Made by a program: the position numbers and the translations under genes. A stretch of 12,264 nucleotides of DNA from a virus (taxonomy: Duplodnaviria; Heunggongvirae; Uroviricota; Caudoviricetes), in IMG/VR virus record IMGVR_UViG_2537561977_000026, positions 1-12,264 of that record; one strand, 5' to 3'. The notes below the pieces were generated by a model that saw nothing but the letters and a program-made list of their open reading frames with translations, searched no databases and was not told the DNA's origin. This document shows positions 2,816-11,704 of the stretch, one piece after another (positions within the stretch are counted from its first letter, which is position 1; each line of letters begins with the position of its first letter).

Positions 2816-3013
2816 ATGGTTGCTGTAAATCATATACCACACCTTGTACACACACAAACGGCCTTTGTGTGGCGTTTTCTGGCCCTGAGTGCCGGAGAAT
2901 CTCAAATCATCCACGTAACCGCCTGGACGGAACGCGAAGCGCGTAGCCGTTGCCCGTACGGTTGTGTTGCTGTGTTCGCCGCCCGTATTCGCCAGGAGGT
3001 GAGTCATGCATAA
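2816..3013 (+). CDS. Icd-like small protein (Icd/Ash-family pattern)
   Basis: ATG 2816 preceded by AGAGGAAAA. MVAVNHIPHLVHTQTAFVWRFLALSAGESQIIHVTAWTEREARSRCPYGCVAVFAARIRQEVSHA fits the small Icd-like proteins usually found just upstream of P4-type primase genes. The track ORF 2645..3013 carries an N-terminal extension that is probably not translated. Confidence 0.5.
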   Translation: MVAVNHIPHLVHTQTAFVWRFLALSAGESQIIHVTAWTEREARSRCPYGCVAVFAARIRQEVSHA

Positions 3014-3233
3014 AATACCTTTTGATGTTCTTATTCATTCTGAGAATGCATTAATCCGCGCAAAGGAAATGGAGGCATTATTACTTAAGTTAATGGAAGT
3101 GCCGGAAAATGGCGATGAATCATATCCCATGATGTTTTCTGCCGTGCACACATTATTAACGCCAGTAATTAACGAATTAAATACGGTGATGGCAATTCAC
3201 GAGAATAATAAAGCGCATCACACCGGAGAATAA
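3006..3233 (+). CDS. hypothetical protein (75 aa)
   Basis: Strong SD AGGAGGTG; start overlaps the upstream stop (ATGCATAA), suggesting translational coupling within the operon. Confidence 0.5.
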   Translation: MHKIPFDVLIHSENALIRAKEMEALLLKLMEVPENGDESYPMMFSAVHTLLTPVINELNTVMAIHENNKAHHTGE

Positions 3234-3238
3234 AAACC

Positions 3239-3526
3239 ATGAAAAAGAAAAATTCTGGCTTTACTGTCAGCGGCCCCGCTCGGCCTGAAATCCGCCCCGG
3301 CGATATTTTCAAAGATAACTACGGCGGCACGATAACGATAAAAGACGTGGAAGAACGGCGCATCACCTACCGCCGTGAAGGCTACGACTATGACTGCGTG
3401 ATGCCTGTTTATCAGTTCCGGCGTGATTTTAAGCTGGTGGGCCATCGTAAAGCCGTAAATCAGAAACGTGCAGCAAGCTATATCCGCAAAATCCGTGAAA
3501 TGCTGGTCGCAGGGGGTAAAAAATGA
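3239..3526 (+). CDS. hypothetical protein (95 aa)
   Basis: SD GGAGAA; its stop overlaps the primase start (ATGA). Basic C-terminus. No family recognised. Confidence 0.5.
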   Translation: MKKKNSGFTVSGPARPEIRPGDIFKDNYGGTITIKDVEERRITYRREGYDYDCVMPVYQFRRDFKLVGHRKAVNQKRAASYIRKIREMLVAGGKK

Positions 3527-4258
3527 AACTGGCACCGAACGTAAAACAGCAGTCACGCGGCATAAAACACAAAGAAACAGAAGTCATTATTTTTGCGGGT
3601 AGTGATGCCTGGTCACACGCAAAACAATGGCAGGAACATGACGCGCGTATGGCCGGAGATAATGAGCCTCCTGTGTGGCTTGGGGAGCAGCAGTTATCCG
3701 AACTGGATAAGCTGCAAATTGTGCCGGAAGGCAGAAAATCCGTGCGCATATTCAAGGCCGGATATCTTGCGCCAGTAATGATAAAGGCGATTGGTCAGAA
3801 GCTGGCGGCGGCAGGCGTACAGGATGCAAATTTTTATCCTGAGGGTATGCACTGCCAGGAGGTGCAGAACTGGCGCGAATATCTGGCCCGTGAACGCCAG
3901 AATCTTTCTGATGGTCTGGTTATTGAGCTTCCGGTAAAGCAAAAAATGCAGCTTTCGCAGATGGCGGACAGTGAGCGCGCGCAGCTGCTTGCCGATCGCT
4001 TTGATGGCGTTTGTGTGCATCCAGAAAGTGAAATCGTTCACGTATGGCGCGGCGGGGTATGGTGTCCGGTCAGCACAATGGAACTTAGCCGCGAAATGGT
4101 GGCGATCTATTCAGAGCACAGGGCCACTTTCAGCAAGCGCGTAATCAATAACGCCGTGGAAGCATTAAAAGTTATTGCCCAGCCAATGGGGGAGCCGTCC
4201 GGCGATTTGTTGCCGTTCGCCAATGGTGCGCTTGACCTGAAAACGGGGGAATTTTCCC

Positions 4259-5552
4259 CTGAGGAATCCCCAGAAAACAAGACAGGCATAGTGAGATGTG
4301 ATCTAATTGATTGTGCTAACAATTTCAAGGAGATCACCACTATGCCTGCACGTTCATTATGCCAAAATTTCCTTAACAACATACTGGCCCCTTTGCATCT
4401 TTACCGTCAAAAATCACTGATTGACGCAACTAATGCTGTAATAAATGGCGCTTCCCTCACACTTACCAGTATCGGGCGTCATTTAACCGGTACGGCATCA
4501 GTTAAAAACAAAATAAAGCGGGTGGATCGACTGTTGGGGAATCGACATTTGCAAAATGAGGTTTCCACCATTTTTCAGCGAATTACCCAAAAGATTACGC
4601 GGGGAATGTCTCGTGTTGTGATACTCATTGACTGGAGTGCTTATCATGCCTCTCGTTTTCAGCTTTTGCGGGCAAGCCTGGCATGTGACGGGCGTTCTTT
4701 ACCGTTGATGAGTTGTGTCGTTCCATCATCACAGACAGCGAATGCAGATGTACATGAGCGTTTTCTGGAATCGCTTGCTGAGTGCTTTTCCCCCGGGACT
4801 GATGTCATTGTTATTACAGATGCCGGTTTTCAGGGGCGATGGTTCCAACAGCTCCGCTCCCGTGGCTGGACCTATATTTGCCGGGTACTGGGCAATCATT
4901 ATTACAATGTTGGTAATGGCTGGGAAAAGGTGTCGGACTCAGGCACAAAAGCATCAACGACAGCAATTTATTTAGGTGAAGGCCTGCTGGGTCGAGATAA
5001 AAATGCACAACATGAAGGGCATTTTTATCTTTATAAAAGTAAGCCTAAAGGTCGTAGATTTAAACGCTCGAAGGAAAGAGCAACCAGACCATCGGTGACG
5101 GCTAAAGCTCGTACTGCCGGGAAATCACCATGGTTTATTTTCACAAACAGTACTGAGTTCTCGCCAAAACAGGTAATGAAATTATACAGCCGTAGAATGC
5201 AAATTGAGCAAAATTTCAGGGATGAAAAAAATCCTCGCTGGGGATTTGGACTACGGTTTGGTGCCAGTCATTCATCCGGGCGGGTCACGGTATTGAGTCT
5301 GATCGCAACATTAGCCAGTATCATTATGTGGTTAAGCGGTTTCAGCCTGGAAAACAAAGGGATACATCATAAATATCAGGCAAATACAGTGAAGCACAGG
5401 CGAGTCATCTCGTTATTAAAACTGGCGGAGAATGTGATTCGACATTCTCCACTCATACTAAACACACTGTCACTTGACGCAGGGCTGAAAGTTCTACAGC
5501 AACGGTATACCAATATGATAATGGTTTACTAAATTTTCTGGGGATCCCTCAG
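4259..5552 (+). mobile_element. IS4-family (IS10-like) insertion sequence, ~1.29 kb
   Basis: Terminal inverted repeats CTGAGGAATCCCCAGAAAAC (4259-4278) and complement of ATTTTCTGGGGATCCCTCAG (5533-5552), 18/20 match. Flanked by direct repeat GGAATTTTCCC (4248-4258 and 5553-5563), consistent with a target-site duplication. Confidence 0.85.
4342..5532 (+). CDS. IS4-family (IS10-like) DDE transposase
   Basis: 396 aa, collinear with IS10 transposase: IKRVDRLLGNRHL, LIDWS, ITDAGF, YSRRMQIEQNFRD, QANTVKHRRV. In the track it appears fused in frame to the primase N-fragment (ORF 3523..5532). Confidence 0.85.
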   Translation: MPARSLCQNFLNNILAPLHLYRQKSLIDATNAVINGASLTLTSIGRHLTGTASVKNKIKRVDRLLGNRHLQNEVSTIFQRITQKITRGMSRVVILIDWSAYHASRFQLLRASLACDGRSLPLMSCVVPSSQTANADVHERFLESLAECFSPGTDVIVITDAGFQGRWFQQLRSRGWTYICRVLGNHYYNVGNGWEKVSDSGTKASTTAIYLGEGLLGRDKNAQHEGHFYLYKSKPKGRRFKRSKERATRPSVTAKARTAGKSPWFIFTNSTEFSPKQVMKLYSRRMQIEQNFRDEKNPRWGFGLRFGASHSSGRVTVLSLIATLASIIMWLSGFSLENKGIHHKYQANTVKHRRVISLLKLAENVIRHSPLILNTLSLDAGLKVLQQRYTNMIMVY

Positions 5553-5974
5553 GGAATTTTCCCCGCACACGCCGGAGAACTGGATCACCACGCACAACGG
5601 CATTGAGTACACGGCACCAGCACCAGGGGAGAACATCCGCGACAACGCTCCAAACTTTCATAAATGGCTTGATCACGCTGCCGGAAAAGATCCGGGCAAG
5701 ATGATGCGTATATGCGCCGCGCTATACATGATTATGGCGAACCGGTACGACTGGCAGATGTTTATTGAGGCCACCGGAGACGGCGGGAGCGGCAAGAGCA
5801 CTTTCACGCACATAGCCAGCCTTCTGGCAGGGAAACAGAACACAGTAAGGCAGTATGACTTTCCGTGAGACAGATGCTGGCCAACGTGGGATATTTAACG
5901 CGGGTTAACATCGTTGTCAGAGCCGCATGGGTGAGCTGTTGCTACACCCCGGTATTTCCACCACGGAGGCCAGC

Positions 5975-7102
5975 ATGAACAACAATAACACATTGTACGT
6001 CGGGTTAGATGTTCACAAAGAATCGATTACTGTCGCTTATGCTATCAATTCAGAACCTGTTGAACTGATGGGTAAAATTGGCACATCACCTACTGATATT
6101 CAGAATCTTTGTAAACGTCTCAGGTCAAAGTCATCGCAGGTCAGTATCGTTTATGAAGCGGGGCCCTGTGGTTATGGACTTTATCGTCGGCTGGTGAAAT
6201 CCGGTTTTGACTGCATGGTCTGCGCCCCCTCACTTATCCCGAAAAAACCGGGGGAGCGGGTTAAAACCGATCGCCGTGATGCCATCAGACTTGTGCGTTC
6301 ACTGCGTGCAGGAGATCTTTCTGCTGTCTACGTACCCGGCATTGAAGATGAGGCATTCCGGGATTTGGCCCGGGCATGGGCATCTGCCCGCGATGATTTA
6401 CGGCATGCAAGGCAACGTCTGAAATCGTTTCTTCTGGTTCATGGGGTCCATTATGTCGGGCGAGCAGATTGGGGCCCTGCACACCGACGCTGGCTCAGCA
6501 AATACTCATTCGAAAGTCCCTGGCGACAATTAGCTTTTGACGAACACCGTCGTACAATAGAAGACCGGCAGGCACAATGTGAACGGCTGGAATCCGCCCT
6601 GAAGGAGGCCGTTACCGAATGGAGGCTGTATCCGGTAGTAGAGGCGCTGCAAGCCATGCGAGGGATTCAGTTTATTACTGCGGTTGGATTAATTTCTGAA
6701 CTGGGTGATCTGACCCGTTTTGAACATCCACGACAACTGATGTCATGGTTTGGTATCACGCCATCAGAATATTCATCGGGTGGAAGCAGACATCAGGGCA
6801 GCATTACCAAAGCCGGAAACAGCTATGCCAGAAAGCTATTGGTCGAGGCAGCGTGGAGTTACCGTCATCCGGCACGCATCAGTCCGGCAATACAAAAAAG
6901 GCAGGAAAATTTACCCCGCCCCGTCATTGACAGAGCATGGGATGCTCAACTCAGGCTTTGTAAGAGGTATCGAAAACTTCAGGCCAAAGGAAAGAATGTC
7001 AATATTACAATTGTTGCTGTTGCACGTGAGCTGGCGGGTTTTATCTGGGATATGGGCCGAATAGCAATGTCTGTCGCACAACAACCACAATGTCACAAAT
7101 AA
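5975..7102 (+). CDS. IS110-family (DEDD) transposase
   Basis: GGAGG 5 nt before ATG 5975. N-terminal LYVGLDVHKESITVA and C-terminal LQAMRGIQFITAVGLISELGDLTRFEHPRQLMSWFGITPSEYSSGGSRHQGSITKAGNSYARKLLVEAAW are IS110/IS116/IS902-type motifs. The track ORF starts at 5927 but 5975 has the SD. Confidence 0.85.
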   Translation: MNNNNTLYVGLDVHKESITVAYAINSEPVELMGKIGTSPTDIQNLCKRLRSKSSQVSIVYEAGPCGYGLYRRLVKSGFDCMVCAPSLIPKKPGERVKTDRRDAIRLVRSLRAGDLSAVYVPGIEDEAFRDLARAWASARDDLRHARQRLKSFLLVHGVHYVGRADWGPAHRRWLSKYSFESPWRQLAFDEHRRTIEDRQAQCERLESALKEAVTEWRLYPVVEALQAMRGIQFITAVGLISELGDLTRFEHPRQLMSWFGITPSEYSSGGSRHQGSITKAGNSYARKLLVEAAWSYRHPARISPAIQKRQENLPRPVIDRAWDAQLRLCKRYRKLQAKGKNVNITIVAVARELAGFIWDMGRIAMSVAQQPQCHK

Positions 7103-7118
7103 AAAATGAGAATAACCA

Positions 7119-7307
7119 GTTCCCTGAAGGCGACGTAGCCCGGTACAAGAGTAACCCACGTTAGCGCTTGGCGACGGCGGAACAAAGCTGATTCGCGACG
7201 TAAGAAAGTGGCAGGCTCATATGACGGACCTCTGTAATGCGGTATCCAACCCGCGAATATCAGCGTGATTCACCGTCGGATTTACTGCTACGTCGCCCTC
7301 AGGGAAT
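7119..7307 (+). ncRNA. candidate bridge/seek RNA of the IS110-family element
   Basis: 19-nt inverted repeat TCCCTGAAGGCGACGTAGC (7121-7139) / GCTACGTCGCCCTCAGGGA (7287-7305), 18/19 pairs, extendable by 2 bp, enclosing ~147 nt. Internal ATATCAGCG (7257-7265) is identical to the IS-end/flank junction at 7363-7371; AGCGCT (7163-7168) matches the right flank. Confidence 0.3.
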
Positions 7308-8116
7308 TAAACCTAAAAAGAAAATCGTCAAAATTAGAGATTCCGGTTTGACACGGAAAGTCATATCAGCGCTGAGATGACATCGCTTGATGATGCTGGT
7401 GGGCGTGCACAGGTTGTCGGGAGTCGTCTTATCGTCCTGGCAGACCAGCCGAAATATACAGGCGAAGGAACGGGCATCAAGAAAATCACGGGCGGCGACC
7501 CCGTGGAAATTAACCCGAAATATGAAAAGCGTTTTACGGCGGTAATCAGGGCGGTGGTGCTGGCAACCAATAACAATCCGATGATATTCACCGAACGGGC
7601 CGGAGGCGTGGCACGTCGTCGCGTGATTTTCCGTTTCGACAATATCGTCAACGAGGCCGAAAAAGACAGGGAACTACCGGAAAAGATTGCGGCTGAAATC
7701 CCCGTCATTATCCGCCGATTACTGGCGAACTTTGCAGACCCTGAAAAGGCGCGGGCTTTACTACTGGAACAGCGTGACGGTGATGAAGCACTGGCGATAA
7801 AGCAGCAAACGGATCCGGTTATTGAGTTTTGCCAGTTCCTGAATTTTCTGGAGGAAGCACGTGGCCTGATGATGGGTGGCGGTGGCGATTCCGTGAAGTA
7901 CACGACCAGAAACAGCCTTTACCGCGTCTATCTGGCGTTTATGGCATACGCAGGCAGAACCAAACCACTAAACGTAAATGACTTTGGCAAGGCCATGAAG
8001 CCAGCCGCAAAAGTTTACGGACATGAATATATTACGCGAAAAATTAATGGAGTGACGCAGACTAACGCAATAACAACCGACGATTGCGACGCGTTTTTAT
8101 AATTTTTGGCAATTGC

Positions 8117-8333
8117 TGTCTACCTGATTACATAAAAGTTGTTTTAATTCAGTGTATTAATTTAGGTAGACAGCTTTTTTTACTGTCTACAAGCTGTCTA
8201 CCTTGTCTACCTGTTTTTGTAGCCAGTCGGAGGGATGGGTAGACATCAGGTAGACAGAGATTTTTTACTGTCTACCACCATAAAACCCGCGTCATTACTA
8301 GCCTGAGCATCCACCAGGTAGATAAGGTAGACA
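8117..8333. repeat. iteron array, candidate replication origin (P4 ori/crr analogue)
   Basis: Octamer TGTCTACC at 8117-8124, 8195-8202, 8204-8211, 8269-8276. Complement GGTAGACA at 8165-8172, 8238-8245, 8249-8256, 8326-8333. Variants at 8184-8191 and 8317-8324. Two palindromic units GTAGACAG-N9/10-CTGTCTAC (8166-8190, 8250-8275). AT-rich spacers. Directly downstream of the primase gene. Confidence 0.6.
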
Positions 8334-8382
8334 AGGTGGGGGTATCTCCAAAACTTTTTAAACGAGGGGGGTAAAAACAAAA

Positions 8383-9319: not shown

Positions 9320-9325
9320 TCACAC

Positions 9326-9348
9326 AGCCGGAGGAATCCGGCTTTTTT
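9326..9348 (+). terminator. rho-independent terminator
   Basis: AGCCGGA-GGAA-TCCGGCT hairpin followed by T6. Confidence 0.6.
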
Positions 9349-9354
9349 ACGCCT

Positions 9355-9504: not shown

Positions 9505-9560
9505 CATAACTGGATGTTCATACAGTTATGATTTTTTAAGTCAAAGAGGAATTTCTGACT

Positions 9561-9767
9561 ATGGCAGAAGAGAAAAAAGGTGGGGTTACAGTCTACATAA
9601 GCCCCGACATTGTGGAGGCACTCAAGGAACGCCACCAGCAGAACGTAAAAGCGAGCATTGCGGCAGGACTTGATCCGCTGGCAATGGTTGAGCCGTCAAC
9701 AGGCTGGCAGGTGCGCGCCTATTTACGTGCGGCGTTGGGCATGAATCAGACTCATGGGGGTGAATAA
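9561..9767 (+). CDS. hypothetical protein (68 aa), first gene of head operon
   Basis: SD AGAGGA before ATG 9561; stop overlaps the capsid gene start (TAATG). Confidence 0.5.
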   Translation: MAEEKKGGVTVYISPDIVEALKERHQQNVKASIAAGLDPLAMVEPSTGWQVRAYLRAALGMNQTHGGE

Positions 9768-10821
9768 TGGCAGGTAAAGCAACGGCTCTTAACACTAACC
9801 AGCTTTTCGCGTACCTGAATCGTGGTGATATTGCTGAATTTAAATTCAGTCCGCTGTTTACCACGCTGTTTTTCCCGAACGTGGCGACATTCAGCACCCA
9901 GAACATCATGCTGGATACCCTGGACATTGAAGAAGTCACCATGTCAGCGTTTTGTTCGCCTATGGTGGGTAGTCAGGTCCAGCGCGATAAAGGGTACGAA
10001 ACCAGCACGATTAAACCTGGCTACATGAAGCCAAAGCACGAAATCGATCCAACAAAAACCATTATGCGCATGGCTGGAGAAGATCCGGCACAGCTTAACG
10101 ACCCTACATACCGCCGTATGCGTCTGATTACTGGCAACATGCGCCGCCAGGTCAACGCCATTAAAGCGCGCGTCGAATGGCTGGCGGTGAATGCGGTCAC
10201 GACCGGAAAAACATCATTGAGGGCGAAGGCATAGAACGCTATGAAATTGACTGGAAGATACCGGAAAGCAATATCATAGTGCAGGTCAAAGGCTGTAAAT
10301 GGTCTGAACAGGACAAAGAAACACACGATCCAATCTATGACATCGAGCTTTATGCGGATCAGGGCAGTTGCCCCGCCAACGTCATGATTATGGGCGCTGA
10401 TGTATGGCGCACGTTACGCAGCTTTAAAAAATTCCGCGAGCTGTACGATCTTTCCCGTGGTTCAGAATCCGCCGCCGAACTGGCGTGTAAAAACCTGGGC
10501 GAAGTGGTGAGCTTTAAAGGCTATCTGGGCGATATTGCCCTTATCGTCTATTCCGGCAAATACGCCGACAGCGACGGCACCGAAAAATATTTCCTTGAGC
10601 CTGATTTGCTTGTCCTGGGCAACACCAACAATAAAGGGCTGGTGGCCTATGGTGCGATTATGGATCAGGACGCAGTAAGAACGGGCGCAACGCAAAACAT
10701 GTTTTACCCGAAAAACTGGATTGAGGACGGCGATCCGGCGATTGAGTACGTGCAGACGCACAGCGCACCGCAGCCGGTTCCGGCAGATATTCGCAAATTT
10801 GTTACCGTCAAAATTGGTTAA
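9767..10821 (+). pseudogene. lambda gpE-type major capsid protein, -1 frameshift in an A5 run
   Basis: ORFs 9767..10234 (frame 2) and 10177..10821 (frame 1) together are collinear with lambda E: FKFSPLF..LFF, IKPGYMKPKHEIDP, DPTYRRMRLITGNMRRQVNAIKARVEWLAVNAVTTGK, then DPIYDIELYA...SRGSESAAELACKNLGEVVSFKGYLGDIALIVYSGKY...LVLGNTNNKGLVAYGAIMDQDA...FYPKNWIEDGDPAIEY. Restoring A6 at 10206-10210 gives one ~352-aa ORF. Confidence 0.85.
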
Positions 10822-11180: not shown

Positions 11181-11552
11181 ATGGCAACGAATGAAAGCAT
11201 CATGACGCTACCGCTGGCGAGTAAATTTAAAGCCGAAGCGCGGGCAATGGCTGACAGAGGGTTATCAACCTACGAGGCCATATATCAACTTAACAAACTG
11301 GAAGAGCAGGACAAGCCGCGCGCTGATGCGATTATGGCGCTTGATGAATCTGGCGACTATCAGCCGCTGTTACGTGCAATGGCAAACGTGCCTTGTATCG
11401 ATGTTGGTACGGCCAAAAGCATTCTTAGCATGACCATAGAGCAGGAACGCCAGAAGGTTGCACCAGAGCTTACCGCAGCCTTTGAAAACTTTATGGACAT
11501 GCACAGCCCGAAAGCCGTATCAGCTGGCATGGCATACGATAGCAGAAACTAG
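11181..11552 (+). CDS. hypothetical protein (123 aa), head-operon associated
   Basis: Strong SD AGGGGGAA; tightly spaced after the D-like gene; followed by a terminator. No family recognised. Confidence 0.55.
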   Translation: MATNESIMTLPLASKFKAEARAMADRGLSTYEAIYQLNKLEEQDKPRADAIMALDESGDYQPLLRAMANVPCIDVGTAKSILSMTIEQERQKVAPELTAAFENFMDMHSPKAVSAGMAYDSRN

Positions 11553-11600
11553 GGCGATGACGGCGACATCGATCGCATACTGAAAACCATCTGAGACAAG

Positions 11601-11622
11601 GCCGGAGAAATCCGGCTTTTTT
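11601..11622 (+). terminator. rho-independent terminator, same module as 9326-9348
   Basis: GCCGGA-GAAA-TCCGGC followed by T6; 24/25 identical to the terminator at 9326-9350. Confidence 0.6.
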
Positions 11623-11704
11623 ACGGGGCCTTTCCGGCATATGGACCCGTTACGGGGCGGGAGCGGCGCAGAATTTCACTATTTATGAAAATTTTTCGGA
11701 AACC

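Follow-up and report, generated by a model that had tools for sequence, protein, structure and literature searches.

The 12,264-nt window analysed here is an entire 12-kb genomic island, carried on contig ADUP01000047.1 of assembly GCA_000188815.2 and flanked by yejM/tRNA-Pro on one side and yejO on the other. A P4-type tyrosine integrase gene (int) is followed by genes for an AlpA-like regulator, a YlcI/YnfO-family protein and a DUF4222 protein, and then by pri-rep; 3′ of pri-rep lie an iteron cluster, genes for SSB and a PerC homologue, and capsid and decoration genes. The island is a phage-inducible chromosomal island (PICI) of the EcCICFT073 type, and its pri-rep gene appears in the open reading frame (ORF) list as three collinear pieces within 3523–8102, separated by two insertion sequences (IS), ISEc60 and ISSso6. 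It is highly probable that the PICI lost pri-rep through two independent transposition events, with each IS at a site that fits its own target rule. The split itself is far beyond chance: each IS matches a catalogued element exactly, and joining the three fragments restores a real gene.

A replication gene in three pieces

Rebuilt-ORF, intact-gene and Pfam alignments place the three fragments, all on the plus strand, along one protein. Fragment A (3523–4258) encodes residues 1–245, comprising an N-terminal region of unknown fold and the start of the D5_N domain. Fragment B (5564–5849; residues 246–341) completes D5_N and contains the SF3 helicase Walker A motif, GDGGSGKST, and fragment C (7370–8102; residues 342–584) supplies the remainder of the helicase together with a P4-alpha-like origin-binding domain, assigned with the additional help of PDB entry 1ka8. 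Removing 1305 and 1520 bp yields a 1755-bp ORF of 584 amino acids (3523–4259 + 5565–5849 + 7370–8102). Many junction choices left the frame open in a brute-force scan, and comparison with empty sites was used instead to define the joins.

The original prediction that this is one gene, split into three collinear fragments by two IS and otherwise clean in frame, is borne out. The rebuilt ORF has no internal stop and, with both IS removed in silico, aligns end to end with intact genes of E. coli strains 181.1 and FDAARGOS_943. Its product is identical to the 181.1 protein at 567 of 584 residues without a gap, and the gene itself matches the uninterrupted gene in the same tRNA-Pro island of FDAARGOS_943 at 1754 of 1755 nucleotides, the single difference being K78R. 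That intact gene holds both target sequences unbroken, ACGGGGGAATTTTCCCCGCAC and ACAGTAAGCGCTGAG. The allele of E. coli VL7S7 differs from the rebuilt gene at two nucleotides.

The prediction had also called the product a P4-type primase, a description that suits only part of it. Pfam places D5_N at residues 153–283, DUF5906 (an SF3 P-loop domain) at 316–417 and Pox_D5 at 487–575. By BLASTP, residues 143–573 align to residues 326–756 of phage P4 alpha (40% identity over 432 amino acids, E 6e-110); fragment C is 42% identical to alpha 525–756, and the C-terminal domain matches the solved winged-helix origin-binding domain of alpha (PDB 1ka8, E 7e-6). The protein has the D5_N, SF3 helicase and C-terminal origin-binding domains of an alpha-type protein and, as in P4, iterons adjoin its gene. 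Unlike alpha, it has neither the Zn-ribbon nor the Toprim domain (PF08273 and PF13362 in P4 alpha): nothing aligned ahead of alpha residue 326, residues 1–160 gave no Pfam match at E ≤ 10, and the N-terminal 142 amino acids match no detectable family. The TIGR01613 model (P4-family primase C-terminal region) scores 106.9 bits, just under its cut-off of 108.7. The pri-rep product would correspond in function to the helicase/initiator part of alpha, and primase activity finds no support in the sequence.

Just beyond the gene, at 8116–8334, GTAGACAG/CTGTCTAC recurs about 11 times, in either orientation, as an iteron cluster. Across the window the motif matches 22 times where 5.0 matches are expected, and 10 of the 22 lie inside the cluster, which by analogy with PICI and P4 organisation is the likely candidate for a replication origin served by pri-rep.

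Two insertions and their target sites

ISEc60 (IS4 family, IS10-like; 4259–5552, plus strand) is intact at 1294 bp, runs from CTGAGG to CCTCAG with terminal inverted repeats at 4259–4277 and 5534–5552, and shows 100% end-to-end identity to numerous copies bearing the annotation 'IS4-like element ISEc60'. Its ends are identical in four other copies; taken as 4257–4277 and 5534–5554, the inverted ends are 21 nt long and 95% complementary. Two copies of an 11-bp target duplication, GGAATTTTCCC, flank the element at 4248–4258 and 5553–5563, the original target being ACGGGGGAATTTTCCCCGCAC, and comparison with the empty site in VL7S7 gives a 1305-bp insertion with a 13-bp overlap. The transposase ORF taken from the ORF list (4342–5532, plus strand, 396 amino acids) has the DDE domain typical of the IS4 family, matching DDE_Tnp_1 (PF01609, E 1.8e-20) and NF033591 (360.5 bits against a cut-off of 152).

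An IS10-like element with intact repeats and a duplication had been predicted at just these coordinates, and both the placement and the likeness hold. The transposase is 36% identical to that of IS10 over about 375 amino acids, nearly its full length (E 1e-74); the IS10 query is 100% identical to the plasmid R100 copy. The two elements share a DDE transposase, a length of about 1.3 kb and similar ends (CTGAGGAATCCCC in ISEc60, CTGATGAATCCCC in IS10). ISEc60 is nevertheless catalogued separately and targets a G-run followed by a C-run, and we regard it as IS10-like and not as an IS10 isoform because its terminal inverted repeats are accompanied by duplications of 10–11 bp (11 bp here, 10 bp in three other copies) as opposed to the 9 bp of IS10.

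The target preference follows from the 10-bp duplications at other ISEc60 copies, GGGTTTCCCC, GGGGTAGCCC and GGGATTTACC. The pattern GGGG-N6-CCCC occurs once in the window, at the ISEc60 insertion site. IS186 has the similar target consensus GGGG(N6/7)CCCC, which raised the possibility that the first IS is of IS186 type; this identity was rejected, as IS186/IS421 and ISEc60 have unrelated transposases. A related pri-rep gene in strain VL40 has an IS421/IS186 element (locus L019, 5650–7010) directly against the same GGAATTTTCCCC, and the use of this identical sequence marks the site as a hot spot. All island sequence left of the VL40 element has been lost. A literature search on ISEc60 and ISSso6 found nothing on their targets.

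Fragment A reads in frame and without a stop into the ISEc60 transposase, forming a 669-amino-acid fusion ORF (3523–5532) that gene callers annotate as one protein. This frame is probably a chance event.

After 285 bp of gene sequence, close to the roughly 300 bp anticipated, comes the second element, ISSso6 (IS110 family, IS1111 type; 5850–7367, plus strand). It is intact at 1518 bp, with an AG core at 5848–5849 and 7368–7369 and subterminal inverted repeats at 5853–5867 and 7353–7367, and is 100% identical at the nucleotide level to copies annotated ISSso6. An IS110-family element at about 5854–7367 had been foreseen, of which the family and the right end stand, and the true left limit is 5850. 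The empty site in E. coli 181.1 gives a 1520-bp insertion in which only AG is shared, with no target duplication. The transposase ORF (5975–7102, plus strand, 375 amino acids) carries the two domains of a DEDD transposase, DEDD_Tnp_IS110 and Transposase_20, and scores 273.7 bits with NF033542, 'IS110 family RNA-guided transposase'; 125 nt of non-coding sequence lie upstream of it and 265 nt downstream. The lack of a duplication, the subterminal repeats and the long non-coding region 3′ of the transposase gene are those of IS1111-type elements (PMC11187229).

Nine ISSso6 copies, that of the window and eight from E. coli genomes, share the junctions ...GTAAG / IS / AGCG(Y)..., and four of these eight lie within the tips of IS66-family elements. 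In strain RMDEC465, an intact member of the IS66 family begins GTAAGCG and has an 8-bp duplication. In pri-rep the site is GTAAG/CGCT at codon 341, directly after the Walker A motif, and the rebuilt window contains a single GTAAGCGY, which is the ISSso6 insertion site. A relative of ISSso6 in S19-141 (95.7% identity) is cut by another IS and was of no use for the guide comparison described below.

The 3′ non-coding region of ISSso6 appears, from its sequence, to carry a guide of the seekRNA type, whose loop matches both target flanks. The candidate guide RNA (seekRNA or bridge-RNA type; 7121–7306, plus strand) has a long closing stem and an internal loop that holds both guides, and the region folds stably (minimum free energy z-score −5.5). 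The putative right-flank guide, GTTAGCGCTT (7160–7169, plus strand), has the reverse complement AAGCGCTAAC, which matches the target AAG/CGCTGA; the putative left-flank guide, GUAAG (7200–7204, plus strand), has the same sense as the left flank ...GTAAG. The ideal target read from the guides is GTAAGCGCTAAC, and the primase-gene site GTAAGCGCTGAG matches through 11 nt with one G·U pair.

The argument for this guide comes from comparison with relatives of the element. The 3′ region has homologues of 75–84% identity on plasmids of Burkholderia, Paraburkholderia, Mycetohabitans and Cupriavidus, and six such Burkholderiales plasmid relatives (loci L022–L027) are 67–73% identical over the entire IS; in these the scaffold is kept and the guide blocks differ, each matching another target. 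The alignment of all seven elements shows two short variable blocks amid conserved sequence; among the seven, right flanks come in five versions and left flanks in four. When reverse-complemented, block 1 reproduces the element's own right junction over 6–7 contiguous nucleotides in all seven (AGCGCT, AGCGTC, AGCACCC, AGTTTTC, (A)GTTTTTG, ACCCTGG and AGTATCT), with the first core base mismatched in L025, and block 2 equals the element's own left flank (GTAAG in three elements; GCCAG, GGTAG and CATAG). We relied on exact contiguous matches because scoring that tolerates wobble pairs inflated cross-matches between guides and flanks (mean 4.6 of 8). In the RNAalifold consensus of the seven homologues the two blocks face each other in an internal loop, and the closing stems include compensatory pairs at 54:76 (AU/GC), 59:69 (CG/GC/AU) and 39:91 (GC/AU).

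In the seekRNA of IS1111 elements, the stretch that matches the top strand lies 5′ of the one that matches the bottom strand, and the two matches overlap where the element inserts (PMC11187229). ISSso6 resembles IS1111 elements with a seekRNA, such as ISEc11 (Siddiquee et al. 2024, PMC11187229), and the IS110/IS621 bridge-RNA systems in its DEDD transposase, subterminal repeats, long 3′ non-coding region and lack of a duplication, as well as in having two putative guide stretches in the same order with targets overlapping at the insertion point. It differs from the ISEc11-type systems in being another element with another target (GTAAG/CGCT, IS66-type termini) and in having an RNA predicted from sequence.

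In RMDEC465 (locus L018, 9351–9966), the right-hand 205 bp of ISSso6 form three tandem copies. The unit begins at AGCGCT in the guide region and extends to the right end of the element, with right-end motifs at 9533, 9738 and 9943. As the repeated unit begins in the target-like guide block, this arrangement suggests self-targeted recombination.

How the gene was probably lost

We propose that the earlier event was probably the arrival of ISSso6, which, guided by its RNA, would have integrated without a duplication at GTA-AG-CGCT paired with two guide stretches. This guide would apparently prefer GTAAGCGCTAAC-type sequences and IS66-family tips that read GTAAGCG..., and the primase-gene site would have served as a near-perfect look-alike. 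ISEc60, a cut-and-paste DDE element, would then have entered 285 bp upstream, at the only GGGG-N6-CCCC of the island, generating its 11-bp duplication; we infer that this second hit was neutral, as the gene was probably already dead.

The proposed order is the simplest that fits related genomes. The VL7S7 island is the same one, its pri-rep allele is the same apart from 2 SNPs, and that allele holds ISSso6 alone, lacking ISEc60; O121 201805972 gives the same coverage pattern as VL7S7 (73% coverage, 99.2% identity). An ISEc60 insertion in this gene was found in none of the complete E. coli genomes searched. The insertions had been described as recent, and this assessment stands: both IS are intact and 100% identical to other, active-looking copies, and the gene, one SNP from an intact allele, has gained at most one substitution since. 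In the interrupted homologues of VL7S7 and RMDEC465, the rebuilt ORF is likewise still open. RMDEC465 has ISSso6 at the same codon of a pri-rep allele that is 7.8% divergent and lies in another island, which makes at least two independent ISSso6 hits likely.

A different account would be that the double hit was selected, with the silencing of pri-rep benefiting the host (for example by preventing toxic runaway replication while PerC or the capsid genes are kept) and insertions enriched as part of domestication. Uncontrolled replication of EcCICFT073 does impair growth (PMC6092414), at least two different islands have a pri-rep broken by ISSso6 (that of the window and VL7S7, and that of RMDEC465 with its divergent allele), and the island of FDAARGOS_943 has been disabled in another way, by an IS21 in int. 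We nonetheless consider selection unlikely. The target rules fully account for both positions, the second hit fell in a gene that was probably already dead, and nothing is visibly preserved, as int, alpA, capsid and another ORF are damaged as well. The type of host lineage is, moreover, rich in IS, the FDAARGOS_943 chromosome having 38 ISEc60 places.

Two further readings concern whether the arrangement is real. Repeated IS copies could have been misplaced inside the gene during assembly, a concern raised by the single draft source and by three 1-bp A-run deletions elsewhere that resemble homopolymer errors, but identical ISSso6 junctions occur in complete genomes of other strains, and ISEc60 is flanked by a perfect 11-bp duplication of a target seen in the intact gene, which a misjoin would not generate. 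An artefact of this kind is very improbable. Less probable still, to the point of being negligible, is a chimeric origin, in which the fragments would come from different island alleles brought together when IS copies recombined: although these islands are mosaic (2091–2980 unmatched in VL7S7; 2980–3522 about 91% identical), the fragments together lie one nucleotide from the uninterrupted FDAARGOS_943 gene and two from the VL7S7 allele, and on these distances a chimeric gene was rejected.

Some points do count against loss of pri-rep by two independent, target-directed insertions. The source sequence is one draft assembly, GCA_000188815.2. The exact end of ISEc60, or the length of its duplication, is uncertain by one base (10 bp in three copies, 11 here). 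The ISSso6 insertion common to VL7S7 and the window could be recurrent and not inherited, because ISSso6 is site-specific. The basis for the guide RNA is comparative, and when the entire window was scanned against Rfam 15 (E ≤ 1), three chance-level hits and no bridge or seek RNA family came back. Against the proposed loss of replication, pri-rep might be provided in trans by another island of the genome.

The account of two target-directed insertions leads to a broader suggestion, to which we give even weight for and against. A guide RNA programmed for the GTAAGCG tips of IS66-family elements would also fit, being nearly identical to it, the conserved pri-rep codon stretch T-V-S-A-E, ACAGTAAGCGCTGAG, and this satellite family would then be hit repeatedly and independently by an RNA-guided IS in lineages of the enteroinvasive E. 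coli (EIEC)/Shigella type; the same gene would hold a hot spot, GGGGGAATTTTCCCC, used by two unrelated IS4-family elements. If confirmed, the two ISSso6 loop stretches give a simple rule for predicting insertion sites, and this rule would explain repeated hits on PICI replication genes without selection. Natural reprogramming of the guide is visible in the Burkholderiales relatives. IS-driven pseudogenisation is well known in such lineages, and the present case is real, well resolved and ordinary: a clean, fully reconstructed instance of a phage satellite decaying through IS insertion in an E. coli/Shigella-type background rich in IS. What is mildly new is confined to the explanation by target rules, in particular the candidate ISSso6 guide RNA.

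The island, its other lesions and its host

The assignment to the EcCICFT073-type PICIs, as opposed to the P4-like satellites, is made on the organisation of the island and the narrow extent of its resemblance to P4. Like EcCICFT073 (Fillol-Salom et al. 2018, PMC6092414), it has the order int–alpA–pri-rep–ori–capsid/decoration, with int beside a tRNA gene, iterons after pri-rep and a length of about 12 kb. Both have a lambda-E-like capsid gene (PF03864, major capsid; 9767–10821 here), a lambda-D-like decoration gene (PF02924 here) and a PerC homologue, and in EcCICFT073 too the P4 resemblance is confined to Int, AlpA and Pri-Rep. When all P4 proteins were searched against the window with tblastn, only Int, alpha and Vis matched; sid, delta, psu and epsilon had no match in the window, and the gene set of a P4-like satellite, including the cI region, was not found there. 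The present island, known from its sequence, differs from EcCICFT073 in its pri-rep split by two IS and in lesions of int, alpA and capsid.

These lesions bear on the further proposal that the regulatory and capsid genes persist, which fails for the present assembly: int, alpA, capsid and one further ORF all carry lesions in it. Compared with VL7S7, int (1–1233) is a pseudogene in three ORFs: one base of an A-run is missing at about 156, and 8 bp, GCTGGTGT, are missing at about 992. The alpA gene (about 1775) and the major capsid gene (10206) have each been frameshifted by a 1-bp deletion from A6 to A5, and the ORF after the decoration gene (phrog_1999) has a premature stop at 11550–11552 that leaves 123 amino acids as against 137 in VL7S7. 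Homopolymer errors in the draft assembly may account for all three A6-to-A5 deletions; the 8-bp deletion in int and the premature stop are probably real. The pattern is one of general decay, not selective retention.

In EcCICFT073, pri is needed for replication, deletion of pri-rep lowers transfer about 100-fold, and deletion of int or alpA abolishes it (PMC6092414). From these genetics we infer by analogy that the present island would be unable to replicate. The island in FDAARGOS_943 (locus L021, 520–3895) has an intact pri-rep and an int split by IS21, which is an independent route to immobilising the same island.

The host is probably of an EIEC/Shigella-type lineage, judging by the distribution of the two IS. 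Of 5426 complete E. coli genomes, 15 contain a full-length ISEc60 and 41 a full-length ISSso6, mostly strains with large plasmids (about 240–300 kb), and the 3′ region of ISSso6 is also frequent on Shigella plasmids.

Within the island, 2091–2980 matches strain 181.1 and nothing in the VL7S7 island, which is collinear elsewhere and has a SWIM zinc-finger gene at that point; the adjoining 2980–3522 is only about 91% identical to VL7S7. These islands are mosaic, as the first of these stretches shows. Two 30-nt direct repeats, 90% alike (GCCGGAG.AATCCGGCTTTTTT), lie at 9322–9351, after the PerC gene, and at 11596–11625, after the ORF at 11181, and look like intrinsic terminators.

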